This document shows, in pieces, positions 49,179 through 64,000 of a DNA stretch of 64,000 nt (within the stretch, counting starts at the first letter, position 1; every line of letters starts with the position of its first letter). The stretch lies in the NCBI GenBank assembly GCA_964457905.1, contig CAYWGA010000003.1, positions 684 to 64,683 of the forward strand, written 5' to 3'. The notes below the pieces were generated by a model. It was not told the DNA's origin and made no database searches. It worked only from the letters and a program-made list of their open reading frames with translations. Origin of the DNA: an uncultured bacterium (GTDB taxonomy: Bacteria > Krumholzibacteriota > Krumholzibacteriia > Krumholzibacteriales > Krumholzibacteriaceae). Both the position numbers and the translations under genes were made by a program.

Positions 49179-50547
49179 AATAGAAGGAGGAGTAGTGATT
49201 TCCATTCGTTGGGTCAAAATTCTCTTGTTATTTGCCGTTCTGGCTGTCGGTCTCTTTGGTTCAGCCAGGGCACAGAGCGAAATAGATACGATGGTACTTG
49301 TACCCCAGGCGCCCGATTCGTTCTATGTTGAGAGGCGCGGTTCGGATATCGTCATCGGCTGGTATCCTCCTCCTGACAGCACGGGAAAAGTCATCGGCTC
49401 GAGGGACTTTACTAACTGGTACGGCCAGCATACTTCAGGAGATGGAGTCGATATATCCTTCGCCGGCTTCTATTCTAATGGCTGGGTCGACAGGCAGGTG
49501 CTCGTTGAAAAATTTGACAGGCTGACCTATGAGGTCGGAGTCACACCGAGTATTCCTCTGAGGATATCCACCGTGGATATGTTTGACAGGACCTACGAGA
49601 AGATCATCAACATCGGCGTGGATAATGGCCCCGATTTTGAAGATTACACTCCGGGAGACCCTATCGAGATGACTCTCGAGCAGATCGGACTTCCGCCCGG
49701 TACGGAGCCCGATGTGCTCGAGCTGGGATTCAATATTCATTTCAGTGCCGGCCTGATCGATACGAGCCAGTACGGACAGGCAGCGGAGTTCCGTCTTGAC
49801 GTTCAGGATTTCACGGGATTCCACGTATGGCGTGGACTGACGCCTTACCCGAGCGACATGCAGGCAATAGTCGAGCTCGATAAAGAGGATTACTTCAAGG
49901 TGTCGGATATCGAAGGTCTCGAGGATGTGCCCGAGAAATGGAAGTGGCTCTGGGAGTACTTCAATGACAATATTACGGGCGCCTGGCCGAAGCTGGACGG
50001 ACAGGGCCGCTGGTACTACGAGTGGATAGACAAAAACGCATTTGCGGGATTCACCTATTACTATAATGTGACGACCTATGACAGGGGATATTTCAAGGGA
50101 TTCAACACCCACAACAAGCAGGATAACTTCATCTGTGATGAGGACATTGAGAATCCCGAGACCCCGGGATTCCCGGTCGACTGTGATTCGATGAGTATCG
50201 CGTTCGAGATGTCTGTCGATACTGGAACGGATATGAACAGTATATACGCTGTGCCGAATCCTTACCGAACAGGGACTTCGGAACAGACGACGTCTTACTA
50301 TCACAACTATCCGGACAATTCGATCAAGTTTTTCAATATGCCCAACGAGTCGCAGATCAAGATATATACGGTATCGGGTGATCTCGTATGGGAGGGCTCG
50401 CACTACAGCGAGGACGGCTCGGACGGTATTCTGAGCTGGGACGTGACGAACAGGGGCGGAGTGGATGTCGGATCTGGAGTCTACGTATTCCGGGTGGAAG
50501 CTCCGAACGGTGACGATGTCTATGGCAGGATCGTGGTAATCCGCTGA
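49171..50547 (+). CDS. secreted Fn3-like protein with T9SS-type C-terminal domain, hypothetical. Alternative GTG start at 49195 after GGAGG.
   Basis: Signal peptide (ILLLFAVLAVGLFGSARA). W-Y-P-P-P-D Fn3-like motif. C-terminal block YAVPNPYR ... SGVYVFRV. Confidence 0.55.
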   Translation: MNRIEGGVVISIRWVKILLLFAVLAVGLFGSARAQSEIDTMVLVPQAPDSFYVERRGSDIVIGWYPPPDSTGKVIGSRDFTNWYGQHTSGDGVDISFAGFYSNGWVDRQVLVEKFDRLTYEVGVTPSIPLRISTVDMFDRTYEKIINIGVDNGPDFEDYTPGDPIEMTLEQIGLPPGTEPDVLELGFNIHFSAGLIDTSQYGQAAEFRLDVQDFTGFHVWRGLTPYPSDMQAIVELDKEDYFKVSDIEGLEDVPEKWKWLWEYFNDNITGAWPKLDGQGRWYYEWIDKNAFAGFTYYYNVTTYDRGYFKGFNTHNKQDNFICDEDIENPETPGFPVDCDSMSIAFEMSVDTGTDMNSIYAVPNPYRTGTSEQTTSYYHNYPDNSIKFFNMPNESQIKIYTVSGDLVWEGSHYSEDGSDGILSWDVTNRGGVDVGSGVYVFRVEAPNGDDVYGRIVVIR

Positions 50548-50707: not shown

Positions 50708-51637
50708 GTGGTGACCATGTTAAGGACGAACAAGCAGTATCTTGTTGAGAAAGCAGTTGCCGGGAAGATCTCCAGCCCGAGGATCCCCCTGAAGAATCCA
50801 TGGCTCATCGATCCCGGCGGAATACCGCATGTGATGCCCGGTACGGGAGGGATCACGTACAACGTATCTGTTGGTGACTCGGCGCTTGATTTTGTGGGGG
50901 ACCATATAGAGCCCGGGGTCAGTGTGACCCTGAAGAGTTCCGAGGCGGAGAGAAGTGTTCTGGGCGGCCTCAGTATCCTGACCTGCATCGGGAACGAAGC
51001 GATGGTCATGTCCGGCCCGGCTGCCGGCAAGAAGGGGATAGTCACCGGAAAGCACGGCGGTGTTGAACATGTGATCATCGATTTCGCCCGAACAATACTC
51101 GACAAGCTCGCGATCGGAGATACTATACAGATCAGGTCACAGGGCCAGGGACTTGAACTGAAGGACTATCCCGATGTGCACGTCATGAATATCGATCCGG
51201 GTCTTCTCGGAAAGCTCGGAATAACCAACCGGAACAAACAGATGATCATTCCTGTCACGCACGTCATACCGGCCTCGATAATGGGTTCGGGTCTCGGCTC
51301 AAGACACAGTTACAGCGGTGATTATGATATTCAGCTGGGGGAGAAGGAAACGATAAGAAAATTCGGGCTGCAGAACCTGCGGATAGGTGATGTGGTAGCG
51401 ATAAACGATGCGGACTGCAGGTACGGCAGGACTATCAGGTCCGGCGCGACGAGCATAGGCGTTATCGTGCATGGAGCCTGTATAACGAGCGGGCACGGTC
51501 CCGGAGTGACCGTTCTTATGACTACCGTGGAAAAGCTTATTGTACCCAAGTTAGAGGAGGGCGCGAATATTTCGATATACCTGGGAATCGGCCGGGAGAA
51601 GAAGAACAAGCGTCCTCGAAGCAGGAAAAGACACTGA
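50708..51637 (+). CDS. conserved hypothetical protein (DUF4438-like, about 300 aa) with Lys/Arg-rich tail
   Basis: Cytoplasmic, no signal peptide, Gly-rich beta-type repeats. The assignment to DUF4438 is from memory of family size and composition only. Confidence 0.45.
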   Translation: MVTMLRTNKQYLVEKAVAGKISSPRIPLKNPWLIDPGGIPHVMPGTGGITYNVSVGDSALDFVGDHIEPGVSVTLKSSEAERSVLGGLSILTCIGNEAMVMSGPAAGKKGIVTGKHGGVEHVIIDFARTILDKLAIGDTIQIRSQGQGLELKDYPDVHVMNIDPGLLGKLGITNRNKQMIIPVTHVIPASIMGSGLGSRHSYSGDYDIQLGEKETIRKFGLQNLRIGDVVAINDADCRYGRTIRSGATSIGVIVHGACITSGHGPGVTVLMTTVEKLIVPKLEEGANISIYLGIGREKKNKRPRSRKRH

Positions 51638-51655
51638 CACAGGAGGTGCCGTTCG

Positions 51656-52201
51656 ATGCCGCAGTGGAAGGAAATACTGCCGGAACTGGACTGGATCGCG
51701 GACAGCGATCTGAGGGATCTTGTCGAGAAAGTATGGGAAGATGCCTTTCAGCTGGGTGGATGGGAGGATGGCGATCTCGATTCGATCCCGTTTACCCTTC
51801 TTGTCCCGGACACGGACATCAACCTTTTCGACCATACGAGGATAGTCACGCATCTGGCCAGGCAGATCGCCGGGCCGCTGAAGGAGATGCAGGGCCTGGA
51901 CATCAATGACGACTATCTCATCGCGGGTGCCCTTCTGCACGATGTGGGCAAACTGCTCGAATACGAGAAAAAAGATGGCAAGGTCGTCGTTGCCAGGAGC
52001 GGCAGGCTTCTGCGCCACCCGCTGTCCGGCATGGGCCTGACTGTCAAGTGGGGCCTCCCCGAGGATATCAGCCACTCGATAGCGGTCCATTCGCGGGAGG
52101 GTGAGAGGTCGCCCCGCAGCGTGGAGGCTACCGTCATCCATCACGCTGACTTCATAATGTTCCATACGTTCAAGAGCAAGAGGGAATTCCCCGACATCTG
52201 A
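51656..52201 (+). CDS. HD-domain phosphohydrolase (181 aa)
   Basis: H ... HD(V)GK ... H ... D pattern (ALLHDVGK). Confidence 0.6.
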   Translation: MPQWKEILPELDWIADSDLRDLVEKVWEDAFQLGGWEDGDLDSIPFTLLVPDTDINLFDHTRIVTHLARQIAGPLKEMQGLDINDDYLIAGALLHDVGKLLEYEKKDGKVVVARSGRLLRHPLSGMGLTVKWGLPEDISHSIAVHSREGERSPRSVEATVIHHADFIMFHTFKSKREFPDI

Positions 52202-52211
52202 CAGGGGAGCG

Positions 52212-53939
52212 ATGCGCATTTACAACAGGCTCACAGCGGGCTCGATCATCTTTGCAGCCGCGTTGACGGCTTTATCACCGGGCATCGATCCGGGAAACGC
52301 CGCCGGCCGTGCGGAGTACGGTAAGGGACTCGAACGGGTCCTGCAGACAATCAATCAGGATGAGACAGTTCCCGTGTGGATCTTCTTTGCCGCAGCCTCT
52401 GACAAGGCCGCGGCTTTTTCACACCGGGCCTCTGGCAGGATTCTGAAACGAGGCATGACCGGAGGCGCCCTCCGCCCGCCGGGGCGTGCTTCGGTCGAAT
52501 CGGTCATTCCGTTTGTCGAGCGCATCAGGCACAGTTCCTCGTATTTCAACGCCGTCAGCGCTGATGTAAAGGCTGAGATGATCCCTGAGATCCTTGCGCT
52601 GGATGGAGTGGTGAAGGTCGATATTGTAAGGACCTACAGGCGCGGAAGGGATCCGGAACCCACCACTTATGATGATCTAGCCCCGCGAGCTCCTGCGAGC
52701 CCCCAGATCGGGATCTACGGAGACAGTTTCAACCAGCTCTATATGATAGAAGCGGTCGATCTTCTCGAGATGGGATACAACGGTTCGGGCGATTCAGGCT
52801 CGGCAGGCCAGGTCATGATCGGGATACTCGACAGCGGTTTTCTTCTCGACCACTACGCCTTTGATCGCCTCGATGTCCATGCGCAGTGGGATTTCGTCAA
52901 TGATGATCCCGTAGCGGAGAATGAACCTGGGGACAACCCCGAGCAGGACAGGCACGGCACCCTCGTGCTCGGAACGATCGCCGGATACGGGGAGGGCGAG
53001 CTGATAGGGCCTGCCTGGGGGGCGGTCTACCTTCTCGCGAAGACCGAGATCATCGGTGAGGAGATAGAGGTAGAGGAGGATAACTGGATCGCCGGACTGG
53101 AGTGGTGCGACAGTATCGGGGCGGATATAGTGACGAGTTCGCTCGGGTACGTGCTCTGGTACGAAGAGGATGATCTCGACGGGGAGATAGCACTCTGTAC
53201 AATCGCCGCGAACAGGGCCGCTTCCAGAGGCATCATCGTCTGCAATGCCATAGGTAATTACGGCTGGAACGGACCGACATCACTGATAGCTCCTTCCGAT
53301 GCCGACAGTGTGATCGCCGTCGGCGGCGTATACGCCGATGGAAGCCTCTGGGGATCGAGTTCAAGGGGACCTACAGCGGACGGCAGGATCAAGCCTGACG
53401 TGATGGCCCAGGGGGCAGCTGTATTGAGCGTTGCCTGGCCCTTCGATTACGGTTACGGTAATTACAGCGGCACATCTTTCGCGACTCCGCTTGTCGCTGG
53501 ACTGTGCGCACAGATACTCGAGATACACCCCGACTGGACCCCGATACAGATGAGAGACTCCCTCCGGGTCCACGCCTCCAACAGTGAGTCACCGGACAAC
53601 AGCATGGGGTGGGGGATCGCTGCGGGTCTCGCGACGGCAGGTATTCTCCCCGACGGCGCACCCGGCGTTACTTTTTCCAACGGGTACCCGAATCCTTTCG
53701 ACGACTACATATCATTCGACCTCTATTCGAGCAGATGGACCTTTGTAACCGCCCGGATCTACGACCACACGGGCCGGCTGGTCAGGACGCTTCTCGAAGA
53801 GGAATCACTCCTCTTCAGAGCGACTGTCGTCTGGGATGGAACAAACAACTCCGGACGACAGGTTGCCAGCGGGGTCTACTTTGCCGAGTTTGTCTCACCT
53901 CAAGTCAGGTCGGTCCTGAAGATCGTAAGGATGAGGTAA
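52212..53939 (+). CDS. S8 family subtilisin-like serine peptidase with T9SS C-terminal sorting domain
   Basis: Catalytic triad contexts ILDSGF (Asp), HGTLVLG (His) and GTSFATPLVAG (Ser). C-terminal block YPNPFDD ... SGVYFAEF. Confidence 0.8.
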   Translation: MRIYNRLTAGSIIFAAALTALSPGIDPGNAAGRAEYGKGLERVLQTINQDETVPVWIFFAAASDKAAAFSHRASGRILKRGMTGGALRPPGRASVESVIPFVERIRHSSSYFNAVSADVKAEMIPEILALDGVVKVDIVRTYRRGRDPEPTTYDDLAPRAPASPQIGIYGDSFNQLYMIEAVDLLEMGYNGSGDSGSAGQVMIGILDSGFLLDHYAFDRLDVHAQWDFVNDDPVAENEPGDNPEQDRHGTLVLGTIAGYGEGELIGPAWGAVYLLAKTEIIGEEIEVEEDNWIAGLEWCDSIGADIVTSSLGYVLWYEEDDLDGEIALCTIAANRAASRGIIVCNAIGNYGWNGPTSLIAPSDADSVIAVGGVYADGSLWGSSSRGPTADGRIKPDVMAQGAAVLSVAWPFDYGYGNYSGTSFATPLVAGLCAQILEIHPDWTPIQMRDSLRVHASNSESPDNSMGWGIAAGLATAGILPDGAPGVTFSNGYPNPFDDYISFDLYSSRWTFVTARIYDHTGRLVRTLLEEESLLFRATVVWDGTNNSGRQVASGVYFAEFVSPQVRSVLKIVRMR

Positions 53940-54080: not shown

Positions 54081-56834
54081 ATGGCTGACAAGCATGTATA
54101 TTACTTCGGAGGCGAGGAAGCCGAAGGCAATGCCGGAATGCGCAACCTTCTCGGCGGCAAGGGAGCCAACTTGGCGGAGATGGCCAGCACGGGCATTCCA
54201 GTCCCTGCAGGATTCACGATCTCTACCGAGGTCTGTGTATCGTTCTACAAAAACGGCGGAAAGTATCCTGACGGGCTCGAAGCAAATGTAGTGTCAGCGA
54301 TCGAAAAAGTTGAGAAGACGATGGGCGCTAAATTCGGCGACGCGTCAGATCCTCTGCTTCTGTCCGTACGTTCGGGTGCCAGGGTGAGCATGCCGGGTAT
54401 GATGGATACGGTCCTGAACCTCGGGCTCAATCTTGAAACGGTCGAAGGGCTGTCTAAGAAGAGCGGCGATGAGCGGTTTGCCTGGGACTGTTTCAGGCGC
54501 TTCGTCCAGATGTACGGCGATGTCGTCCTTGAGATGACGCCGAGCGGCAAGGACGCAAGGGACCCGTTCGAAGAGATCCTGCACGCGAAAAAGGAAGAGG
54601 TCGGTGCCGACCAGGACATGGATCTCAGCGTGGACGACCTCAAGGATCTCGTCGTGCGTTACAAGGCTATGATACTCGAGCAGGCCGGAGTGGAGTTCCC
54701 CGAAGATCCCCGCGAGCAGTTGTGGAACGCGATCGGAGCGGTCTTCAACTCCTGGAACAATGACAGGGCAAATACTTACAGGCGGATCAACGGTATTCCC
54801 GATGACTGGGGCACGGCTGTTAATGTCCAGTCGATGGTATACGGCAACCTCGGAGACGATTCGGGGACCGGTGTGGCATTTACAAGGAATCCGGCGACCG
54901 GCGAGAACCTCTTCTACGGCGAGTACCTGATGAAGGCCCAGGGAGAGGATGTAGTCGCGGGTATCAGGACGCCTCATCCGATAAACATCACCCAGAAGGG
55001 CGATGTCGAGGTCGAATCTCTCGAGGAAGAGATGCCAGAGATCTACGCCGAACTCGACGCGATACGTCTGAAACTCGAGGACCATTACCGGGATATGCAG
55101 GATCTCGAGTTCACGATACAGAACGGACAACTGTGGATCCTCCAGACCAGGGCAGGCAAGAGGACAGGCTTCGCGGCTATCAAGATCGCGATCGACATGG
55201 TCCGCGAGAAGCTCATTACGAAGGAAGAGGCGATCCGAAGGATCGATCCCGAGCAGCTCAACCAGCTTCTCAGGCCGGTATTCGATCCAGGCCAGAAAAA
55301 GAAGGCGACAGAAGAGGGCCGTCTCATGGCAAAGGGGATCAACGCGGGGCCGGGAGCCGCTACGGGCAAGGTAGTGTTCAATGCCGAGGATGCCGAACAG
55401 TGGGCCGCTGACGGAGAAGAAGTGATCCTCGTGAGGATCGAGACCAGCCCTGAGGATATCCGCGGTATGAATGCCGCATCGGGTATCCTTACCTCCGCCG
55501 GTGGATCTACATCCCATGCCGCGCTTGTCGCGAGGCAGATGGGCAAGGTCTGCGTCGTCGGCGCCAGGGAGATAGTGATAGATTACAGGTCGAGAACCCT
55601 CGAATCGGGCGGCACAAAGCTCTCTGAAGGCGATTACATCTCGATCGACGGATCTACCGGTGAAGTGATGGCCGGCATGATCAAGACGAAGCCGTCCGAA
55701 GTGGTCCAGGTCCTTATAGACAAGACTATGGACGCGAAGGATTCGGAGGTCTACCGGGACTATGAGGAACTGACAGGCTGGGCAGACAGCCTCAGGACTA
55801 TGAAGGTCAGGGCCAACGCCGATCGTCCCGATCAGGCTGCCGCTGCCGTCGCCTTCGGTGGTGAGGGGATAGGCCTCTGCCGTACAGAGCACATGTTCTT
55901 CGAAGGCAAGAGGATCGACTGGGTGAGACGCATGATCCTTGCCGCGGACGAGGCGGGAAGAAAAGAGGCCCTCGCGAAGCTGCTCCCGATGCAGCAGGAG
56001 GACTTCCACGGGATATTCGAGGCCATGGGAGAGAGGCCGGTTACCGTACGTACTCTTGATCCGCCGCTTCACGAGTTCCTTCCCCACGAGAAGGAAGATA
56101 TCGATGAGCTGGCCGGCAAGATGGGTGTGGACCCGGGTGTGCTCTCCGACAAGGTCACGTCCCTCAAGGAGGCAAACCCGATGCTCGGCCACAGGGGCTG
56201 CAGGCTCGGGATCGTATACCCTGAGATAACAGAGATGCAGGTAAGGGCGATATTCGAGGCGGCCTGTGACCTGGCGTCAAAAGGAAAGAAAGTATCACCG
56301 GAGATAATGATACCTCTCGTGGGAAGCGCTAAAGAGTTCGAGCTCCAGGAGGAGGTCGTAAGGCGCGTGGCGGCAGAGGTATTCAAGGATCGCGGTGTCG
56401 AGGTAGATTATCTCGTCGGTACGATGATCGAGATCCCGAGGGCGGCACTGACAGCCGATGCCATAGCGGTGAAAGCGGAGTTCTTCTCGTTCGGGACAAA
56501 CGACCTGACCCAGACTACCCTGGGTATCAGCAGGGACGATGCCGGCAAGTTTATCAGCGACTATATCGAAAAGGGTGTCTGGCCCGCCGATCCGTTCCAG
56601 AAACTCGATCAGGAGGGAGTAGGCACCCTGATCAAAATAGGCGTGGAACTGGGCAGGGGAGCCAGGAAGGACCTCAAGGTAGGGATCTGCGGCGAGCACG
56701 GCGGTGAACCATCATCGATAGGATTCTGTCAGAGGACAGGGTTCGATTATGTCAGCTGCTCCCCCTACAGGATCCCGGTTGCGATACTTGCCGCTGCTCA
56801 GGCGGCCCTGGAGGGAGCCGGGGAAGGGAGCTGA
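54081..56834 (+). CDS. ppdK: pyruvate, phosphate dikinase
   Basis: PPDK N-terminal ATP-grasp domain, the central phospho-His domain (GGSTSHAALVAR) and the C-terminal PEP-utilising TIM barrel. GGAGG RBS. Confidence 0.9.
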   Translation: MADKHVYYFGGEEAEGNAGMRNLLGGKGANLAEMASTGIPVPAGFTISTEVCVSFYKNGGKYPDGLEANVVSAIEKVEKTMGAKFGDASDPLLLSVRSGARVSMPGMMDTVLNLGLNLETVEGLSKKSGDERFAWDCFRRFVQMYGDVVLEMTPSGKDARDPFEEILHAKKEEVGADQDMDLSVDDLKDLVVRYKAMILEQAGVEFPEDPREQLWNAIGAVFNSWNNDRANTYRRINGIPDDWGTAVNVQSMVYGNLGDDSGTGVAFTRNPATGENLFYGEYLMKAQGEDVVAGIRTPHPINITQKGDVEVESLEEEMPEIYAELDAIRLKLEDHYRDMQDLEFTIQNGQLWILQTRAGKRTGFAAIKIAIDMVREKLITKEEAIRRIDPEQLNQLLRPVFDPGQKKKATEEGRLMAKGINAGPGAATGKVVFNAEDAEQWAADGEEVILVRIETSPEDIRGMNAASGILTSAGGSTSHAALVARQMGKVCVVGAREIVIDYRSRTLESGGTKLSEGDYISIDGSTGEVMAGMIKTKPSEVVQVLIDKTMDAKDSEVYRDYEELTGWADSLRTMKVRANADRPDQAAAAVAFGGEGIGLCRTEHMFFEGKRIDWVRRMILAADEAGRKEALAKLLPMQQEDFHGIFEAMGERPVTVRTLDPPLHEFLPHEKEDIDELAGKMGVDPGVLSDKVTSLKEANPMLGHRGCRLGIVYPEITEMQVRAIFEAACDLASKGKKVSPEIMIPLVGSAKEFELQEEVVRRVAAEVFKDRGVEVDYLVGTMIEIPRAALTADAIAVKAEFFSFGTNDLTQTTLGISRDDAGKFISDYIEKGVWPADPFQKLDQEGVGTLIKIGVELGRGARKDLKVGICGEHGGEPSSIGFCQRTGFDYVSCSPYRIPVAILAAAQAALEGAGEGS

Positions 56835-56948
56835 CCTATCCGGAGTGGTGACAGGGAAAAGGGGACCCCTGACTGCAGCAGCAGGCTGAAGAGATCGATA
56901 CTCGGTTTCCTCGCGGTTGCGGTCGTCCTGCTGGCAGGCTGTTGTGCG

Positions 56949-57635
56949 GTGCTGGCTCTGGCCGGGATGCCTGAACTCTCGGTCGGCATTGTTCTATGGA
57001 CCGTTCCGGTGATCGGTGTCTTCATCATATTCTCCCTGAGAAATATGCACCTTTTCCGCAGCCCGGATGGCAGCGAAGTCTGCCGTTTCGAGGCAGCGAA
57101 CATTCTTACAGCGATGAGGATATTCCTCGTGCCGCCTGTTCTGGTACTCCTTAATCACGGATATATGATGCCGGGCGCCATTCTCTGGCTGGCTGCCGAA
57201 CTCACCGATGTCGCGGACGGATTCGTCGCGCGCAGGTTCAGGCAGGAGACGGCATTCGGCCTGATGATAGATCCTGTGGGCGATATCATGGCGACGATCG
57301 CGGTGTTTACCTGGCTGTTTATCAGCGGAAGGGTCCCCAGCTGGCTGTTCGCGCTTCTTGTCGCGAGATATGTACAGTTCTTCGCGGGGTTGGCTATCCT
57401 CTCTCTTACTGGCAGACTTCCCAAGCTTCGTGCTACTATTGCGGGCAAGGCGGTCGGAGTCGTGCAGGCATCGATAATACTGTTTTTACTGCTGCGGACG
57501 GCGCTAGGTGATCATCCGCGGCTTGCATCGTACGATTATATACTTTTCCCGGTTCTGGGAGCGGCGTTCCTCTGTGTTATCGTCTCACAGACGGCCATAG
57601 GCCTGAAGGCGGTAAGGAATCACGACGCTTCCTGA
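56949..57635 (+). CDS. CDP-alcohol phosphatidyltransferase family protein
   Basis: D-G-x2-A-R-x8-G-x3-D-x3-D motif (DVADGFVARRFRQETAFGLMIDPVGD). Multi-TM. GTG start. Confidence 0.6.
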   Translation: MLALAGMPELSVGIVLWTVPVIGVFIIFSLRNMHLFRSPDGSEVCRFEAANILTAMRIFLVPPVLVLLNHGYMMPGAILWLAAELTDVADGFVARRFRQETAFGLMIDPVGDIMATIAVFTWLFISGRVPSWLFALLVARYVQFFAGLAILSLTGRLPKLRATIAGKAVGVVQASIILFLLLRTALGDHPRLASYDYILFPVLGAAFLCVIVSQTAIGLKAVRNHDAS

Positions 57636-57642
57636 CAGGAGG

Positions 57643-58140
57643 TTGAAGATGGATCTGGGCGGCGACCTCGCAGTAATGGATCCCGCAATGATATTTCAGG
57701 TGACCGGTATCTGCGGCCTGACCGGGAAGATGAAATTAATCACTATAGACAACGTGGCCAGCTTCTGGTTCAGGGAGGGCGGGCTCCTCTTCGCAACTAT
57801 CGATACAGGAAAGAAGATGATAGGCGAGTTCCTGATCGAGAACGATACGATATCAAGAAAACAGCTCGATGAGGCCCTGGATCAGATAAAGAAGGAAGAT
57901 GGAAAGAAGAGGATTGGGAATATCCTCATCGATCGCGGCTATCTCGAACTGGAAACCCTTGAGAGCGCGATCCATGCGCAGATCAAGGAAGTGGTATACG
58001 AGGTCCTTCCCTGGAACAGCGGGCAGTTCGTCTTCTTCTCGGGAGTAGAGCCTGAGAACGAGGATATCCTGCTCGACATCAGGATGGATCACCTGATACT
58101 CGAAGGACTGAAACGAATAGATGAGGCAGCCAGGGATTGA
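57643..58140 (+). CDS. DUF4388 domain protein
   Basis: Single-domain 165-aa cytoplasmic protein with a DUF4388-like pattern (GxL..I.L.E.LQ...G ... GxI.F..G). Lies 8 nt after the previous gene. Confidence 0.45.
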   Translation: MKMDLGGDLAVMDPAMIFQVTGICGLTGKMKLITIDNVASFWFREGGLLFATIDTGKKMIGEFLIENDTISRKQLDEALDQIKKEDGKKRIGNILIDRGYLELETLESAIHAQIKEVVYEVLPWNSGQFVFFSGVEPENEDILLDIRMDHLILEGLKRIDEAARD

Positions 58141-59075
58141 TAGTGTCCCGAAGCATCCGGCAGTACCTTAATATAATAAGACGGCTGACATCAGTACCAG
58201 CCGCACTCGCCATCCTTTCTGTCGCCGCATCCGCAGACATGCCGGAGCGGTTCGACGGAACGATATCATCCACAAGATCGACAGCGCTGGGCGGGGCATT
58301 CTCTCCGCTCGCCGACGATGTGACCGCGCTGGTAATAAATCCTGCCGGTCTGATCACCACTGGCGGTTTCGCCCTGTACGCCGATTACATGGAGACGGGA
58401 GGCGGAGAAGGGCCGTACGAGGGAAAGCTCTTCGGCGCAGCCGAGCTCTGGGGGATCATATTCGGTGTCGCCGGCTCGAGTAAGAGCTATGAGGACGGCA
58501 CAGTCGAGAGCCAGTTCTCGGGCGGCTTCGCGATTAATATCATGTCCGGAGCGGCAGGGTCGTTCATTTCGATCGGTGGAGCGCTCAGAGCTGGACGGGT
58601 GGCGTTCGACATCGATGATCCGTGTATCCCGTGCGGTGTTCCCGGCGGGAGGTATTCATACAATGCGCTGACCGCCGACCTCGGTATGATGATAAGGCCC
58701 CTTCCTTTTATATCGCTCTCGTTATCCACAGAAAATATATCCGAGACAGGCTTCGGCTCAGGTGACTATTACATCCCGTGGGACAGGACCGTGCGGTACG
58801 GTGTCGCGTGGCTGCACGAGGACAGGTTCACCGTCTCATGGGAGAGCAGGCACATTGGTGACAAGGTGACGAACCATTTCGGGTTCGGCCTGCGGACTGC
58901 TGTTCCTCTCGAGATCATGGCGGGGATGACCTCGGAGTGTGTCTATGGAGGTGCGAGGTGGGACGGCGGGAGATGGAGGGCATCCCTGGTCTTCGGCCAG
59001 GAGGATGAGAACGTCATCACGACTGGCGCCTCGATCGAGATATTCTTCAACCGACCGGCAGGGATATATCAGTGA
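58137..59075 (+). CDS. FadL/PorV/PorQ-like small outer-membrane beta-barrel (second copy in window)
   Basis: Signal peptide. The N-terminal motif ALGGAFSPLADDVTALVINPAGL is equivalent to the FadL/PorV signature in the 17723 gene. Overlaps its neighbour by 4 nt. Confidence 0.5.
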   Translation: MIVSRSIRQYLNIIRRLTSVPAALAILSVAASADMPERFDGTISSTRSTALGGAFSPLADDVTALVINPAGLITTGGFALYADYMETGGGEGPYEGKLFGAAELWGIIFGVAGSSKSYEDGTVESQFSGGFAINIMSGAAGSFISIGGALRAGRVAFDIDDPCIPCGVPGGRYSYNALTADLGMMIRPLPFISLSLSTENISETGFGSGDYYIPWDRTVRYGVAWLHEDRFTVSWESRHIGDKVTNHFGFGLRTAVPLEIMAGMTSECVYGGARWDGGRWRASLVFGQEDENVITTGASIEIFFNRPAGIYQ

Positions 59076-60610
59076 ACCGGGCGAGCGGCATAAGTGTTCT
59101 TCTTGTGATCGGCGTGGCGCTGGTGTCTCTGTCACTACCGGCGTGGTGCGAGGAGAGCGCGGCCTCGGAGCCGGACTCTTCGTTGAGTTACCGGTGGGGA
59201 GCGGTCTATACGAGCCTGATAGAGTTAAGAGAGAAGGGCTATTATTTCCCCTGGAACGATCCATCCTCTCACTCGTATCTGACTGATCGTGTATCCCTGA
59301 TGTTTGATGCTGAATATGCGAAAAGTCTCCATTTTTTTATAAAGGGGACTACAGGAGTCCGGGGAGGTCCCAAGGATGAGGGAGTTTATCAAAGCCGATT
59401 CTATATCGACCAGGGACATATCTCCGCAAACTGGCAGGACCGGGTTACGGGAAAACTGTTTATCAGGGAAAGAGCATTCCGCAACCGGAACAGGTTGATC
59501 TACATCGTATCGAACGACTCGTGGCTGATCAGGCAGCGTGGAGAAGGATACGATATCGCCGTGATGACTCCGGGTCCGTTCCTGCTCACTTATACCGGCG
59601 CAGTTTTCAGGGATTCACGGGAGCAGAAACAGTACTTCGGACTGCCTCCTGGAGATATGGAGGGTGCATTTCTCAACCTCTTCGAGGGAGGGATTCAGCG
59701 CGATTTTTGGCACGCGGGGCTGACAATCTCAGATGTCAGGTCGAATAAACCACATAGTTACCTTGAAATGTATTCAGCTATGTATGGACTGGACGCCGGA
59801 GTCGGCCTTGCGGGCGGCAGGATAAACCTGGAATTTGCGCGTTCCGCGGCCAGCTGGAGCGACTTCGAAGACGATCTCTTCGGATTTGACTTCGAGGCTA
59901 TGGAATGGGGAAATATAAGTGCTGGGCTCCCCGAGGATGGTGTGCTGGCGGCCGAGTGGACCGGATTGGCCATACATACCGAAGGTGCCGGCAGATTCGG
60001 GATTACTCCCGGATACCGTTACTCGGGATCTTGGTACAGGGATTATATCGGAGAAGTCAATCGTGCGATCGTTGAAAGCTATATCGAGACATGGTGGAAG
60101 CACCCGAAGCTCGCATCTCTAGTTACGGTCAAGGCAGGAGACAGGTACGACTACAGGACAGGGAAAGGAGGAGGCGTGCTGGAGACCTCTGTCTGGACGA
60201 GGCTGAAAGGAGGGCTCGAGACGACGGCGAGAGCCTTCTTCGCGGAAGGATACCGCCCTGTAATGATAGTCTCCACGGTCGATGACAACAACCTGACTCG
60301 TCTGCAGATGACAGCGAGGCTCGATGATACGGGAGGGGAGAGCGAGTTTTCATTCCTAACGGAGGTCGGTGTCAATCTGGGAAGGAGATGGACGCTCGGT
60401 GGCTCGGTCTACCTTGAGAGGTCAGTTTCAGGATTCTATTCAGCCGATATCGAGATGAGGGGGAGCAAGAGGTTCGTGTTCAAAGCCTCTGCAGGTACTT
60501 ATAATCCGGGCAGGACCTATGCCAGTCTTAACTACGATCCCTCTCTACCGGCAACCAATAAAGTTATGACGATCTCGTTCTACACGAGGATCTGGCTCGG
60601 AGGAATATAA
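59072..60610 (+). CDS. large secreted/outer-membrane protein (512 aa), hypothetical
   Basis: Signal peptide and beta-rich aromatic composition. Translationally coupled to its neighbours. Confidence 0.5.
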   Translation: MNRASGISVLLVIGVALVSLSLPAWCEESAASEPDSSLSYRWGAVYTSLIELREKGYYFPWNDPSSHSYLTDRVSLMFDAEYAKSLHFFIKGTTGVRGGPKDEGVYQSRFYIDQGHISANWQDRVTGKLFIRERAFRNRNRLIYIVSNDSWLIRQRGEGYDIAVMTPGPFLLTYTGAVFRDSREQKQYFGLPPGDMEGAFLNLFEGGIQRDFWHAGLTISDVRSNKPHSYLEMYSAMYGLDAGVGLAGGRINLEFARSAASWSDFEDDLFGFDFEAMEWGNISAGLPEDGVLAAEWTGLAIHTEGAGRFGITPGYRYSGSWYRDYIGEVNRAIVESYIETWWKHPKLASLVTVKAGDRYDYRTGKGGGVLETSVWTRLKGGLETTARAFFAEGYRPVMIVSTVDDNNLTRLQMTARLDDTGGESEFSFLTEVGVNLGRRWTLGGSVYLERSVSGFYSADIEMRGSKRFVFKASAGTYNPGRTYASLNYDPSLPATNKVMTISFYTRIWLGGI

Positions 60611-60612
60611 AG

Positions 60613-62550
60613 GTGAATCGTTTCGAGTCTGCAATTCTAATCCTCTTATGCGCATCGGCTATTGCAATGACCGCGCCGGTGCCGGTATGGGCCTCAATCG
60701 AGGTCGACGAGGAGGAGGTAGTATTCAGGCTGGATGATCAGGGCGCCGCCAAGGTATTTCTCACGGGTGATTTCAACAACTGGAACCCGAAGATGGACAG
60801 CATGGTAAAGCGCGGCGGTGCATGGGAACTCAGGCTCTACCTGGTCCCTGGAAGGTACAGATACATGTTTGTCGTCGACGGGGTGAACCTGCCCGACCCG
60901 GACAACCCGAACAAGGACGCTGACGGAAACACCTTCTTTATATTCGTAGAGGAGGAGGGTGTCTATAAGATCGTCTATGAGGTCACCGAAACAGGTGAGA
61001 GGAAGATAGATGAGAAATACGAGCCATATGGAGCCATGACAGCTACGGCTGTGGAGGATTACGGTCTCTTTACGGCATCAGCAGGAGTAGATGGTGAGAT
61101 AGACGGAACCATCCACGGCAATATCCTGATCGGAGCGGAATACGAGACTACTGCGGAGGAACCGATCAAAGCGTACCTGGTAAGGGCGAAGGGCGAATGG
61201 GTAACTGAGAAGTTCCAACTCGGAGCCTTCCACAGGTCCGGCAGAATCGGATTCGATGATCCCCTGTCGCTTTTCACGGATGTCGGTCCATACGCATATC
61301 CGCTCGATCTCTTCTGCAGAGGCGCCGAAGCATCGGCCGGATGGGAGAACTCGATCGAGGGGCGGATCTTCTTTGCCAACAGGATCGACTCGTACAAGTC
61401 AGGATTGAATCTTTTTCACTCATACCCGACATTCGAATATAGATCTCCAGTAGATAAGGACATGATAGGTGCTGATATCAAGGGCTCTTTCGGATCCTTC
61501 CGGCTTGAATACCTGCTGCGCTATGACAATGGACCTGAAATGTACTATGAGTTCGAGGATGGAACGGATGTTATGGGTTACGGTAAAAGGACCTCACACG
61601 GACTCTTGTTCGAATTCGGCAAGGATGACTGGCCGGTTCTGAAGCTCCAACATCTTTCGGGCGCTACAAGTCTTGAAGCTGGCCAGATCATTTACCCCGA
61701 TACACTTGAAACGGGGAAGGGCCCTTCGGACTATGATAGGGACTGGAAGGAAGGATATCGGGCCCTTGCGGGGATCTCATGGTCGAAGGGGCCGTTGTGG
61801 ATGCAGCTCGAGTGGCAGAGGACGACAATGGAACGGAAGCTTGACCACGAATACTACTGGGACGATGCGGAGATGGATATATATGGTGCTGGATTAAAAT
61901 ACGACACAAAAATGATGAACATCGGTTTCGATATCGACTTTATCGATTTCAGTGGTTCAGGCGGGCAGGGATTGACATTCTGGCTGAGCGGCTCGAATTT
62001 CTGGCTCGACGGAGATATGATCAGGACGGAGCTTCTCCAATTTCTTGAGTCGAAGAGGATGTGGAGGACCGTGCTTGAGCTAGAGGAAAGCGGAGTCGAT
62101 GTTATCCCCGGGCCCTATCGTCTGGAGGGCTATCTTAAAGCAAAGGCTAACTGGGATACGGAGGAATCGAGGAGTATGTTCGAGATATCAGGAGGGAAGG
62201 GTATCCGCGCCGGTTCGTATCTATCACTTCATACGGACCTGAGGTATGTCTCCTACAGCGACGATCGCTGGGTAGGTGAGAGCAACTTCTTCGATATCTG
62301 GGCAGGGCTTCGAGGTTCGCTCGGGGGTTCAGGATGGGCAGCGCTGGGAATAGGAGTAGCCCCTCACAGGTTCGACAGATGGTACTTCGGCTTCACTGGA
62401 GACGGGAGGGAGAACTACCTTCTCGACCAGGATTTCTTCGAAACCCATAGCTGGACCGCAGATCCTGATCCGCTGGGTTCATTGGGAGAGGCGGAGAAAC
62501 AACTCTCCGAAGAGTGGAGATTGAGCTTTGAAGCGGGATTTTCCTTCTGA
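60613..62550 (+). CDS. outer-membrane beta-barrel protein with N-terminal CBM48/AMPK-type glycogen-binding (E-set) domain
   Basis: Signal peptide, then VVFRLDDQGAAKVFLTGDFNNWNP ... PGRYRYMFVVDGVNLPDPDNP (CBM48 signature). A long beta-rich body ends in the C-terminal ...GFSF typical of OM barrels. Confidence 0.55.
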   Translation: MNRFESAILILLCASAIAMTAPVPVWASIEVDEEEVVFRLDDQGAAKVFLTGDFNNWNPKMDSMVKRGGAWELRLYLVPGRYRYMFVVDGVNLPDPDNPNKDADGNTFFIFVEEEGVYKIVYEVTETGERKIDEKYEPYGAMTATAVEDYGLFTASAGVDGEIDGTIHGNILIGAEYETTAEEPIKAYLVRAKGEWVTEKFQLGAFHRSGRIGFDDPLSLFTDVGPYAYPLDLFCRGAEASAGWENSIEGRIFFANRIDSYKSGLNLFHSYPTFEYRSPVDKDMIGADIKGSFGSFRLEYLLRYDNGPEMYYEFEDGTDVMGYGKRTSHGLLFEFGKDDWPVLKLQHLSGATSLEAGQIIYPDTLETGKGPSDYDRDWKEGYRALAGISWSKGPLWMQLEWQRTTMERKLDHEYYWDDAEMDIYGAGLKYDTKMMNIGFDIDFIDFSGSGGQGLTFWLSGSNFWLDGDMIRTELLQFLESKRMWRTVLELEESGVDVIPGPYRLEGYLKAKANWDTEESRSMFEISGGKGIRAGSYLSLHTDLRYVSYSDDRWVGESNFFDIWAGLRGSLGGSGWAALGIGVAPHRFDRWYFGFTGDGRENYLLDQDFFETHSWTADPDPLGSLGEAEKQLSEEWRLSFEAGFSF

Positions 62551-62574
62551 TAGAATCGTTTTTTCGGAGGATGG

Positions 62575-62967
62575 ATGAAGATACCTGTTATATTGAGAGT
62601 ACTCACTGTGGCCTCCGTGCTGCTTCTGGCGGCCGGGTCATGCAGCTATATAGATAAGTCGGTCGAATCTCCCGTGCTGAAAGAGGGGACCGTCGAGTTC
62701 AGGTATACATCCTCTTCAGCCAAAACGCTCCAGGTTGCCGGCGACTGGAACAACTGGGGAGAGGGTGACGCCGAGCAGGGTGAGGTGCTCGTTGGCCTGA
62801 TGGAAAAAGGCAAGGGTGACATCTGGAGCCTGACACAGGAACTGCCGCCGGGAAGACATCGTTACTATTTTCTATTGAACGAGACTCAGAGGATTCTTGA
62901 TCCAGCCAATCCGAGAGTCGCGGACGATCCATGGGGAGGGAAGGCAAATCTGCTGATTGTGCCGTAA
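62575..62967 (+). CDS. small lipoprotein consisting of one CBM48/AMPK-type glycogen-binding domain
   Basis: Lipobox (LAAGSC). VEFRY ... VAGDWNNWGEG ... PGRHRYYFLLNE ... DPANP. Confidence 0.6.
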   Translation: MKIPVILRVLTVASVLLLAAGSCSYIDKSVESPVLKEGTVEFRYTSSSAKTLQVAGDWNNWGEGDAEQGEVLVGLMEKGKGDIWSLTQELPPGRHRYYFLLNETQRILDPANPRVADDPWGGKANLLIVP

Positions 62968-62969
62968 TC

Positions 62970-63356
62970 ATGAGAAAATTCAGAATAATCGTGATCCTCG
63001 TTCTAGCTGCCGCAGCTCTTTATTCTACCGGATGCGGGGTGGCCGGGGGCCCGGCCGGGAGCGTCGAGCCTACCGCCGGTCCACAGGTCACGCCTGAAGG
63101 CGTGAGATTTTCCCTCTATTCCACCAAGATAAAGAAGGTCAATATCGCCGGGACCTTCAATAACTGGTCGATGACGGCCGATCCTCTCTATGACAGGGAC
63201 GGGTCCGGGATGTGGGCGATCGTGCTGCCGCTTCCTCCTGGAAAGTACGAGTACAAGTTCATCATCGACAGTGAAGAATGGATTCCTGATCCGGCAAATC
63301 CGACGACCACCGATGACGGCTTCGGTGGATACAACTCTGTCATATCGGTGGAATGA
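62970..63356 (+). CDS. small lipoprotein consisting of one CBM48/AMPK-type glycogen-binding domain (paralog)
   Basis: Lipobox (YSTGC). VRFSLY ... IAGTFNNWSM ... PGKYEYKFIIDSEEWIPDPANP. The start is set at the ATG giving a proper signal peptide. Confidence 0.6.
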   Translation: MRKFRIIVILVLAAAALYSTGCGVAGGPAGSVEPTAGPQVTPEGVRFSLYSTKIKKVNIAGTFNNWSMTADPLYDRDGSGMWAIVLPLPPGKYEYKFIIDSEEWIPDPANPTTTDDGFGGYNSVISVE

Positions 63357-63423
63357 CAGCCCCCCGGATTTCGCCTGAATTCTTAACATCCTCTAAATCG
63401 GAGGCTTACAGAGTGACATATTG

Positions 63424-63452
63424 TTGCAATTTGCCGCGGTATGTGCTAATTT
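63424..63452 (+). promoter_or_regulatory. sigma-70-like promoter TTGCAA-N17-TAATTT followed by about 275 nt with no ORF before the next gene
   Basis: Hexamers with 17-nt spacing. The downstream region contains a small hairpin (CGGCC-ATGAAAA-GGCCG). No ORF was detected there. Confidence 0.25.
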
Positions 63453-63727
63453 GTCCTGAATCGTCTGCTGTATTCTGCGGCGCTGAGTCTCGGCATGGAA
63501 AAGAGATTCATGTGTCTACGGTGGATAATCGGCCATGAAAAGGCCGATATTTGGGCCGCTTTTAGTTCAACATATTGTAGAAACAGCAGTTAGCGAGCCC
63601 CAATCATACCCCTGAGCCTGAAAAGGGCACTGGGTAGGTATGTCCCCATACGGACGGATAAGCTTCATCTGGGCCGGTTAAGACGGTTCCGAATGTGGCA
63701 TATACCTTGCCCCTGTATAGGTGAATC

Positions 63728-64000
63728 ATGTCCGGACCGATTCATAATGCTTCCGCTGGAAGACCGGCAAAAAAGCCGGAGAAAAGGCTCCTGAAGGGGC
63801 TTCTGCTAGCAGTATGCCTTCTTGGGGGAATTCTCTTTTCTACGGCGGCGCATGCCCAGAGCGGCACAGCGATCATAATCCCCTCGACAGATGTAACTGC
63901 CGGCTCTTCAGGGACCTGGACGATCAGGTACACGGCAGCGAACAACTTCTCGACTGGTGTCGTGAGGCTGGTGATCCCGTCCGGATGGTCCACTCCTCAG
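63728..64000 (+). CDS. secreted protein, hypothetical (3' partial, runs off the window)
   Basis: ATG followed by a K-rich n-region and signal peptide (LLLAVCLLGGILFSTAAHA). The frame is open to nt 64000. Confidence 0.4.
   Translation, partial: MSGPIHNASAGRPAKKPEKRLLKGLLLAVCLLGGILFSTAAHAQSGTAIIIPSTDVTAGSSGTWTIRYTAANNFSTGVVRLVIPSGWSTPQ

Follow-up and report, generated by a model that had tools for sequence, protein, structure and literature searches.

An envelope operon in a Krumholzibacteriaceae contig

We analysed a 64,000-nucleotide stretch of DNA (the window; contig CAYWGA010000003.1 of GenBank assembly GCA_964457905.1, positions 684 to 64,683 of the forward strand) from an uncultured bacterium of the family Krumholzibacteriaceae, phylum Krumholzibacteriota. 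The subject of this report is a cluster of six packed genes close to the end of the window, in which the gene for a cytoplasmic PATAN/DUF4388 protein is followed by genes for five envelope proteins, three of them with a CBM48 (glycogen-binding) domain. An earlier reading made from the letters alone, without database searches (the sequence-only reading), had proposed that these genes encode an apparatus for alpha-glucan capture and import. Whatever is said below about function was derived from sequences, modelled structures and gene neighbourhoods in contigs assembled from metagenomes. The genes of the cluster and those at its two ends are listed here (aa, amino acids; ORF, open reading frame; AF2, AlphaFold2; Ig, immunoglobulin).

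56949–57635, + strand: CDP-alcohol phosphatidyltransferase, an inner-membrane enzyme (Pfam PF01066 CDP-OH_P_transf, 1.8e-22).
57643–58140 (likely start ATG 57649), + strand: PATAN/DUF4388 protein, cytoplasmic (Pfam DUF4388, 7.9e-24).
58137–59075, + strand: small barrel, 312 aa, probably of the PorV/PorQ family (FadL-like) by NCBIfam at family level.
59072–60610, + strand: middle barrel, 512 aa, ~24 strands (AF2, pLDDT 73).
60613–62550, + strand: CBM48 domain plus 22-strand barrel, 645 aa (AF2, pLDDT 79.7, pTM 0.70; AMPK1_CBM 1e-10).
62575–62967, + strand: lipoprotein A, 130 aa, one CBM48 domain with an inserted loop (AMPK1_CBM 4.4e-6; lipobox ...LAAGSC).
62970–63356 (ORF from 62931; internal ATG 62970), + strand: lipoprotein B, 128 aa, one CBM48 domain (AMPK1_CBM 3e-13; lipobox ...YSTGC).
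63728–64000, + strand: N-terminal part of a secreted giant protein of Ig repeats, truncated where the window stops (homology to the orthologue in locus L005).

According to the ORF list of the window the six genes are co-directional on the + strand behind the CDP-alcohol phosphatidyltransferase gene, with successive gaps from that gene onward of 7, −4, −4, +2, +24 and +2 nt, the last one counted from ATG 62970. The tight coupling of the six genes described in the sequence-only reading was borne out by this list; the 8 nt given there for the distance to the CDP-alcohol phosphatidyltransferase gene measured 7 nt. PATAN orthologues begin with MDxGG, which makes ATG 57649 the likely start of the first gene and the distance then 13 nt. 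A gene-free stretch of ~370 nt follows the cluster, from 63356 to the giant-gene start at 63728.

The first gene product matched Pfam DUF4388 (PF14332), as had been proposed, with 84.5 bits against a cut-off of 25 and over profile positions 2–121 of 122. It also matched an NCBIfam model for a cyclic di-GMP (c-di-GMP) motif (NF053729, "c-di-GMP motif, MshE-related"; residues 60–113, 2.4e-11) above the curated cut-off (43.2 bits versus 38), and in passing both models it resembles the PATAN/MshEN receptors. The MshEN consensus is a tandem of the 24-residue motif RLGxxLLxxGLLxxxxLxxxLxxQ. The MshEN-type motif of the window protein sits, in tandem, within a helical insertion of the PATAN domain, the second motif (RIGNILIDRGYLELETLESAIHAQ) matching the consensus fully and the first one in part; the motif residues are invariant across 8 PATAN orthologues. 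No signal peptide was found in the protein, and its gene overlaps or abuts the small-barrel gene in every related locus that extends that far. These features suggest that the outer-membrane operon begins with the gene for a c-di-GMP receptor. To our knowledge, no PATAN gene that stands alone and is in translational coupling with genes for outer-membrane barrels has been described. The known PATAN proteins differ from the present one in that they act on type IV pilus motors or in heterocyst patterning. PATAN is regarded as a protein-interaction output domain which binds type IV pilus motor components (bioRxiv 10.1101/2021.06.11.447907; PMC12448109), and its co-occurrence with GspE_N was noted previously (bioRxiv 10.1101/2021.06.11.447907).

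The 512-aa and 645-aa proteins were modelled with AF2, both models being of moderate confidence. The middle barrel was predicted with about 24 strands and no other domain. The 645-aa protein has a signal peptide and was predicted to form an N-terminal beta-sandwich (residues 26–121) followed by 22 long strands (residues 134–644) that end in a terminal Phe; the CBM48/E-set domain takes up about residues 27–121 (DNA ~60691–60975), with the AMPK1_CBM match at residues 43–106. The model agrees with the N-terminal E-set domain plus C-terminal barrel assigned to this protein before. The middle barrels and the barrel parts of the large proteins (18 sequences) matched no curated NCBIfam family, and paralogy between the 512-aa and 645-aa proteins was ruled out, as hhalign found none. 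Searches of Pfam and NCBIfam gave no plug, TonB-dependent-receptor, CarboxypepD_reg-SusC, SusD or maltoporin match in the six proteins or their homologues, and the fold similarity of the models to TonB-dependent-receptor barrels covers the barrel only.

The odd-numbered inter-strand connections of the 645-aa model total 188 residues and the even-numbered ones 43. In such barrels the long loops usually point away from the cell, and the short turns lie on the periplasmic side. Because the odd connections are long and the even ones short, strand 1 of the barrel is predicted to start on the periplasmic side, and the model favours a fused CBM48 domain that is periplasmic or threaded through the barrel lumen in the style of an autotransporter passenger. 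An acidic run, V-D-E-E-E-V-(V/I)-F (60700–60726, residues 30–38), lies right after the signal-peptide cleavage site and is invariant in the CBM48-barrels of the window type (alignment A1); relatives of the CBM48-barrel in the starch loci described below are without this acidic run.

All three CBM48 copies named in the sequence-only reading scored above the Pfam AMPK1_CBM cut-off of 26.8 bits (645-aa protein, 42.1; 130-aa lipoprotein A, 27.2, i.e., barely over; 128-aa lipoprotein B, 50.2), and the three sequence blocks quoted for them are present. CBM_48 was also above threshold in the 645-aa and 128-aa proteins (6.2e-12 for lipoprotein B). The lipobox cysteine of both small proteins is conserved in their orthologues, in agreement with their earlier description as CBM48 lipoproteins. 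Lipoprotein B gave two further NCBIfam matches, to "T9SS plug" (0.03; T9SS, type IX secretion system) and "lipo-invert tail" (0.011), both of them sub-threshold.

The CBM48-barrel family is rare: a word-based protein search returned 38 full-length clusters, and an exhaustive search with a barrel-only query returned 49 representatives among 1.84 billion proteins. Twelve other contigs, with 30–86% identity for the 645-aa protein, carry the same six genes in the same order, i.e., PATAN, small barrel, middle barrel, CBM48-barrel, lipoprotein A and lipoprotein B, followed by a spacer of ~180–470 nt and the giant gene; because the same genes recur in the same order, the six-gene cluster is not a chance arrangement. 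Locus L007 (CAZCEX010000542.1), which is 86% identical to the window barrel gene, is labelled "uncultured Thermoanaerobaculia" and was probably mis-binned.

Of the giant protein the window encodes 90 residues, namely the signal peptide plus 60 residues of the mature chain; over 74 aa they show 54% identity (E 5e-21) with the N-terminus of the orthologue in L005. Giant-gene orthologues follow the cluster on the same strand in 12 of the 12 loci that reach far enough (L001–L005 and L008–L014; they lie at L001:13226–21932, L002:13227–21959 and L003:7117–15849 in the first three), which is where the sequence-only reading had proposed to look for genes of glycoside hydrolase (GH) families GH13 or GH57. 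The orthologues are 4,171–4,954 aa long and built of Big_1/Invasin_D3 repeats; the one of 4,954 aa lies on contig_52490 of ERZ25039527. In the 4,171-aa orthologue, for which the list of Pfam matches is complete, Big_1 and Invasin_D3 are joined by a single faint Ig match, with no T9SS C-terminal domain (CTD) among them, and no barrel domain was found in the first 500 residues of the giant orthologues. Homologue searches with the giant N-terminus returned contig-end fragments only. One homologue of this N-terminus, protein P0070, is labelled "Candidatus Bathyarchaeia archaeon" and probably comes from a mis-binned contig. At L010:13191–17809, within a 699-kb contig of a metagenome-assembled genome (MAG), the giant gene is broken into many short ORFs; this may represent assembly frameshift errors, or the gene could be decaying.

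In its Big_1/Invasin_D3 repeats behind a Sec signal peptide the downstream protein resembles the inverse autotransporters (intimin/invasin) and giant Ig adhesins. Inverse autotransporters differ in having a 12-strand N-terminal barrel with Big_1 passenger repeats behind it in the one polypeptide, whereas the giant orthologues have no barrel on record and extend to 4–5 thousand residues; the barrels here are encoded separately, upstream of the giant gene, and bear no relation to that of intimin.

Collinear modules in starch loci and the CBM48 sugar-binding sites

Searches with hidden Markov models (HMMs) of the window-type proteins found a collinear module in L016 (MAG AUK075), L033 (another Krumholzibacteriota MAG), L019 (a WOR-3 MAG) and L039 (an Eisenbacteria contig). 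The distant modules consist of a small barrel of ~280–300 aa, a middle barrel of ~470–560 aa, a CBM48-barrel of 600–890 aa with one or two CBM48 domains and a CBM48 lipoprotein of 128–165 aa. Scanning metagenomes with the starch-type small barrel (two-sequence alignment) brought in 28 further loci. Alpha-glucan genes were present in 10 of the 11 distant loci with flanking sequence, as in the following examples.

L016: T9SS-CTD protein (weak, sub-threshold GH57 match), T9SS-CTD protein with CBM48/CBM20, Glucodextran_C protein with a CHU_C tail, the module, GH57 protein with CBM48 and CBM20, solute-binding protein, two permeases.
L033: CHU_C protein, the module, two GH13 proteins (one with three CBM48 domains), MalK, amylo-1,6-glucosidase.
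L108 and L109: GH77, phosphorylase, MalE-MalF fusion, MalG, MalK, CHU_C-like protein, the module, CBM48/X25 protein, GH13 with two CBM48 domains, GH57-like protein.

Gene order and sizes are the same in the window-type and starch-type modules, and the profiles of the two types could be aligned. The middle barrels gave an hhalign E of 1.1e-6 over 323 columns; the large proteins aligned with a probability of 99.4% and E 1.8e-21 over the whole length, and with E 4.9e-6 over 374 columns when only the barrels were compared. The barrel-only HMM of the window family detected the large proteins of L108–L110 (2e-19 to 3e-25), L091 (8e-13) and L039 (1e-23), and a BLAST comparison of the window protein with one metagenome CBM48-barrel was collinear at both ends.

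The small barrel has a signal peptide (...AILSVAASA, cleaved before DM) and an N-terminal G-G-A...NPAGL motif. Taken alone, the 312-aa protein matched NCBIfam PorQ (0.0028) and PorV_fam (0.012) far under the curated cut-offs and through the N-terminal motif only, a difference from PorV/PorQ proper. In the alignment of its family (A5), 6 of the 8 members matched PorV_fam/PorQ (best 9.6e-42), and the L016 small barrel did so end to end (residues 31–286 versus profile positions 12–323 of 326); the window-type small-barrel HMM in turn found the starch-type small barrels of L016 (3e-13) and L033 (1e-9). Nothing was returned from a PDB sequence search with the small-barrel profile. As judged from these profile matches, the small barrel is probably a member, at the family level, of the PorV/PorQ barrels, which are FadL-like with 14 strands. 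The earlier FadL/PorQ-like assignment fits the family, and the window protein itself is sub-threshold.

Barrels of the PorV/PorQ family are described as shuttles or anchors of T9SS cargo, with cognate shuttle genes adjoining cargo genes (PMC5562754; PMC12618676), and type B CTD cargo genes as paired with PorP/SprF shuttle genes (PMC12618676). The present family resembles such PorV/PorQ and PorP/SprF pairs in matching the NCBIfam PorV/PorQ models and, in starch-type loci, in that the gene immediately before the small barrel encodes a CTD protein of the CHU_C type (type B-like). The presence of T9SS cargo in the window is a further likeness to PorP/SprF systems: Por_Secre_tail/FlgD_ig tails occur at 41558–44647 and 52212–53939, and there are two further Por_Secre_tail proteins. 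Because of these cargo candidates we take a T9SS to be in use by the organism. The window differs from the PorP/SprF pairs in that its small barrel is preceded by the cytoplasmic PATAN gene, not by CTD cargo; and the small barrel is here always followed by two larger barrels, which is no feature of the known T9SS attachment complexes. The 41558–44647 gene encodes a 1,029-aa protein with C-terminal FlgD_ig, Por_Secre_tail and CHU_C matches, and the 52212–53939 gene an S8 subtilase with a FlgD_ig tail.

The gene directly upstream of the PorV-like barrel in starch-type loci, where the window has its PATAN gene, encodes a surface protein with a CTD; these proteins form a conserved family, and one member has Big_1/Invasin_D3. 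By analogy, the surface protein and the PorV-like barrel look like a cargo-shuttle gene pair. These upstream proteins (L016:4514–7672, L091:4583–9895, L098:2117–8176, L101:3–5723 and L108:8859–9932) range from 358 to ~2,000 aa and have an N-terminal ~240 aa in common; the longer ones have, in addition, a common C-terminal region of ~700 aa that contains Glucodextran_C and a T9SS tail of the CHU_C type.

The CBM48 copies were aligned to the solved glycogen-binding domain of AMPK beta2, and the positions of W100 (FNNW), K126 (YKF), W133 and N150 were compared.

Lipoprotein B: W100, K126, W133 and N150 kept.
Barrel-fused domain: W100 kept; K126 replaced by M, R, A, Q or L; W133 never W; N150 inconsistently kept.
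Lipoprotein A of the window: W100 kept; K126 replaced by Y; W133 replaced by R; N150 kept.

W100 is invariant in all CBM48 copies. The four contact residues of lipoprotein B are also present in four other LipoB sequences aligned (three distinct orthologues). A phmmer search of the PDB with lipoprotein B returned the AMPK beta2 CBM (4.3e-11) and also SEX4, pullulanase and GlgB. A Krumholzibacteriota GH13 amylase has three CBM48 modules, with which lipoprotein B shares 48, 45 and 39% identity over 83 aa. On this sequence evidence lipoprotein B carries a complete canonical alpha-glucan site. Both the barrel-fused and the lipoprotein CBM48 copies of the starch-type modules retain K126 and W133, and some lipoprotein A orthologues retain W at the position of W133. 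The window domains thus resemble the CBMs of AMPK beta, GH13 enzymes and SEX4 in that all three exceed the AMPK1_CBM threshold and lipoprotein B has the four contacts; they differ from those of AMPK beta and GH13 in being free lipoproteins or fused to a barrel, not on a kinase scaffold or hydrolase, and in the loss of K126 and W133 from the barrel-fused domain and window lipoprotein A. The glucan-binding residues whose absence was to count against the sequence-only reading are complete in lipoprotein B and degenerate in the other two domains.

Most of what is understood of how glycans are captured and imported at the outer membrane comes from two models, TonB-dependent systems of the SusCD type and channels of the maltoporin type. 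The starch-type relatives resemble the Bacteroides starch utilisation system (Sus; SusC/D/E/F/G) as an outer-membrane apparatus beside amylases and an inner-membrane importer; they resemble SusE/F in their small starch-binding beta-sandwich lipoproteins, with weak X25 and SusF_SusE Pfam matches in starch-type loci; and their hosts are uncultured T9SS bacteria, some of them candidate phyla of the Fibrobacteres–Chlorobi–Bacteroidetes (FCB) group. The module differs from Sus in being without a SusC-type TonB-dependent transporter (no plug, no TonB box, no Pfam or NCBIfam match) and without SusD; in its three barrels (two of uncharacterised families), the binding module fused to a barrel N-terminus and the T9SS-type parts; and, in the window copy, in the lack of any linked enzyme. 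The likeness to Sus had been put forward as analogy and not homology, in full agreement with the absence of SusC/SusD, TonB-dependent-receptor and maltoporin domains. Compared with LamB of the mal regulon and with CymA, the starch-type relatives are similarly flanked by MalE/F/G/K, GH77 (MalQ-like) and phosphorylase (MalP-like) genes, and by analogy their barrels probably hold the place of LamB as a TonB-independent glucan channel. They differ in having no maltoporin-family match in Pfam or NCBIfam, 22 and ~24 strands as against 18 (LamB) and 14 (CymA), and extra CBM48 domains and lipoproteins.

For the module family as such, the alpha-glucan link is real. As judged from gene context, the best account of this family is that it forms the outer-membrane portion of a system for the use of alpha-glucan and is homologous to neither SusCD nor maltoporin. 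Its ancestral and commonest setting would be a locus for alpha-glucan (starch, glycogen, maltodextrin) in uncultured bacteria with a T9SS; the carriers that could be placed taxonomically include FCB-group candidate phyla (Krumholzibacteriota, Eisenbacteria). The comparative data point to a third arrangement for handling glycans at the outer membrane. In the starch-type loci, T9SS-tagged amylases and the CTD-bearing surface protein would act extracellularly; the PorV/Q-like barrel would dock the CTD protein delivered by the T9SS; CBM48 modules would hold the glucan chain while one or both of the large plug-less barrels conduct oligosaccharides to the periplasm; and the MalE-MalFGK importer, GH77 and phosphorylase would take over from there.

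Role of the window cluster and alternative readings

Compared with the starch-type modules, the window copy has kept the core and lost the linked enzymes and importer, as well as two sugar contacts in both the barrel-fused domain and lipoprotein A; it has an additional lipoprotein with an intact site, a PATAN/MshEN-motif gene in place of the CTD-protein gene, and the giant Ig-repeat neighbour. The five envelope genes of the window are most likely a lineage-specific, rewired paralogue of this undescribed Sus-analogous module. As to what the paralogue does, we give roughly even chances to a retained role in c-di-GMP-linked alpha-glucan binding or conduction with the hydrolases encoded elsewhere. 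The envelope complex would then bind alpha-glucan via lipoprotein B and conduct or anchor it at the outer membrane, and its expression or activity would be tied to c-di-GMP.

Several observations weigh against an alpha-glucan role. The homology of the large barrels across locus types rests on moderate profile E-values near 1e-6, backed by collinearity, and the WOR-3 locus L019 is the exception among the distant loci, with no GH gene nearby. Among the 12 related loci no homologue of GH13, GH57, amylo-1,6-glucosidase (GDE) or Mal transporters was found within 10 kb upstream and ~9 kb downstream; BLAST of these loci against the starch-locus genes gave CBM48-to-CBM48 matches only, and the gene downstream of the cluster is the giant Big_1/Invasin_D3 gene and no GH13 or GH57 gene. 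Two of the three CBM48 domains in the window (the barrel-fused one and lipoprotein A) are without equivalents of K126 and W133, and for the barrel-fused domain this was so in 49 of 49 sequences (27 aligned homologues and 22 further full-length representatives from the exhaustive search). Mutants of the AMPK beta-CBM imply that loss of K126/W133 should abolish canonical binding. The barrel-fused CBM48 domain is nonetheless the most conserved stretch of the 645-aa protein, and its sequence suggests that it is under selection, probably not for canonical glucan binding. That this domain captures glucan at the cell surface, as the sequence-only reading would have it, is doubtful in view of the modelled periplasmic loop pattern. 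The wider proposal of alpha-glucan capture and import is supported in part: the collinear homologues in starch loci and the intact site of lipoprotein B speak for it, and the 12 subfamily loci without GH or Mal genes speak against it, so that one refuting condition named in the sequence-only reading, conserved neighbourhoods unconnected with carbohydrate-active enzymes, holds to some extent. That reading mentioned neither the c-di-GMP motif of the first gene nor the giant downstream gene nor the tie of the small barrel to the T9SS. Finally, the whole 15-kb region (468-aa protein of no known type, DUF4438, HD, S8 peptidase, pyruvate phosphate dikinase (PPDK), the cluster and the giant gene) is syntenic in the clade, and adjacency there tells little on function because the upstream housekeeping genes are equally syntenic.

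The main alternative is a role in which the module was repurposed in this clade to display or anchor the giant Ig-repeat protein at the cell surface. The PorV/Q-like barrel would be its shuttle or anchor, and the larger barrels would form a base; contacts with other proteins or with matrix glucan would fall to the CBM48 domains, the PATAN/MshEN protein would switch adhesion through c-di-GMP, and alpha-glucan uptake would no longer be the function. We regard this as possible, if on balance unlikely. Adhesion is commonly controlled by c-di-GMP receptors. In each of the 12 loci that reach far enough, the cluster has the giant Big_1/Invasin_D3 gene behind it in the same orientation, the starch-type small barrel is always preceded by a CTD surface protein (one with Big_1/Invasin_D3), and the barrel-fused CBM48 domain has lost its sugar contacts and is still the most conserved part of its protein. 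Such an adhesin platform would also fit PATAN as a protein-interaction output domain (bioRxiv 10.1101/2021.06.11.447907) and PorV/PorQ barrels as T9SS shuttles or anchors next to cargo genes (PMC5562754; PMC12618676). However, the synteny is region-wide, and the adjacency of the giant gene is no stronger than that of PPDK; linkage of the cluster to the giant gene was dropped as functional evidence, being weak where PPDK, S8 and DUF4438 genes are equally syntenic. Against this role there are also the lack of a T9SS CTD in the 4,171-aa orthologue (complete Pfam list), the ~370-nt spacer between operon and giant gene, and the glucan site of lipoprotein B, which is intact and under selection; and the giant proteins are not detectably orthologous to the starch-type CTD proteins, shared Ig repeats aside. 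A retained alpha-glucan role and a role in adhesin display are not mutually exclusive.

It is quite improbable that the cluster has no glycan role at all, i.e., that the "CBM48" domains are generic E-set/Ig spacers, that the operon encodes structural or porin-like proteins and that its likeness to the starch module reflects common ancestry only. Two of three domains without key binding residues, a lipoprotein A that barely reaches the Pfam threshold and the wide reuse of E-set folds would fit; but lipoprotein B has all the main AMPK contacts and up to 48% identity to an amylase CBM48, three paralogous CBM48 domains have been kept in one operon across 30–100% identity, and the family-level tie to alpha-glucan loci is consistent. 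Export, in which the barrels would serve to secrete or anchor an alpha-glucan of the cell's own making (as capsule or biofilm matrix), with periplasmic CBM48 domains leading the polymer to the channel and c-di-GMP activating the process as in Pel, Pga, Bcs and NfrB, is very unlikely indeed: the N-terminal CBM48 domain predicted to be periplasmic (loops of 188 versus 43 residues), the c-di-GMP motif of the NfrB-glycosyltransferase type and the CDP-alcohol phosphatidyltransferase often found upstream are what it would have in its favour, but no glycosyltransferase, synthase or polymerase is encoded in the cluster or the 12 related loci, the loci that surround homologous modules are catabolic ones, equipped with importers, amylases, GH77 and phosphorylase, and structural matches were no better than to unrelated barrels.

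Returning to the paralogue of an alpha-glucan module, a bolder and tentative proposal, which we hold to be rather less likely to be right than wrong, is that the module is a new glycan machine, TonB-independent and T9SS-coupled, of three barrels plus CBM48 lipoproteins, which would capture alpha-glucan chains and move them into the periplasm, with periplasmic CBM48 domains possibly acting as a ratchet; it would take the place of SusCD or LamB in uncultured bacteria with a T9SS, FCB-group candidate phyla among them. A duplicate in Krumholzibacteria would have been rewired (changed ligand surface of the barrel domain, cytoplasmic c-di-GMP input through the PATAN protein, giant Ig-repeat fibre as partner at the surface), tying the second messenger to glucan-dependent attachment or feeding. 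In the searchable literature, which does not take in subscription journals, we found neither an outer-membrane barrel with a fused CBM48 domain nor the present set of genes described, consistent with the remark in the sequence-only reading that the architecture was not known there as a described system. If the third arrangement for handling glycans is confirmed, the annotation of polysaccharide utilisation would change in candidate phyla without SusCD pairs, there would be a natural case of a carbohydrate-binding module fused to a membrane barrel, and the window paralogue would be a testable case of module duplication and rewiring, with sugar contacts lost and a c-di-GMP receptor and giant adhesin neighbour gained. 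If it is not confirmed, there is still a conserved operon of unassigned role in a poorly studied phylum.

Neighbouring genes

The CDP-alcohol phosphatidyltransferase matched several NCBIfam models (pgsA, others), every one under its cut-off. A homologue lies upstream of the cluster in L002, L003, L005, L006, L009 and L011 and not in L001, L008, L010 and L012; missing from 4 of 10 loci, it was ruled out as a core part and is an accessory neighbour.

The remainder of the window holds housekeeping genes, and G+C is uniform across it at ~55%. As had been claimed, no strong glycoside hydrolase match was found among the ~45 ORFs of the window, a statement that covers the best 25 of 59 families listed and excludes matches of E < 1e-18 only. 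Counts of promoter and terminator patterns around the operon were not above those of shuffled sequence, and Rfam gave no match in 56000–64000. At 50708–52201 a DUF4438 gene is followed by one for a small HD-domain protein, a pair that several of the related loci share, upstream of their S8 peptidase and PPDK genes.

Three consecutive + strand ORFs at 44895–46856, 46866–49178 and 49141–50547 (653, 770 and 468 aa) have no Pfam match. The last of these, the 468-aa ORF, is kept upstream in all related loci, and a 39%-identical homologue adjoins a PorV-family small barrel in an Elusimicrobia MAG (L018 15003–15275 and 14033–15004, minus strand).

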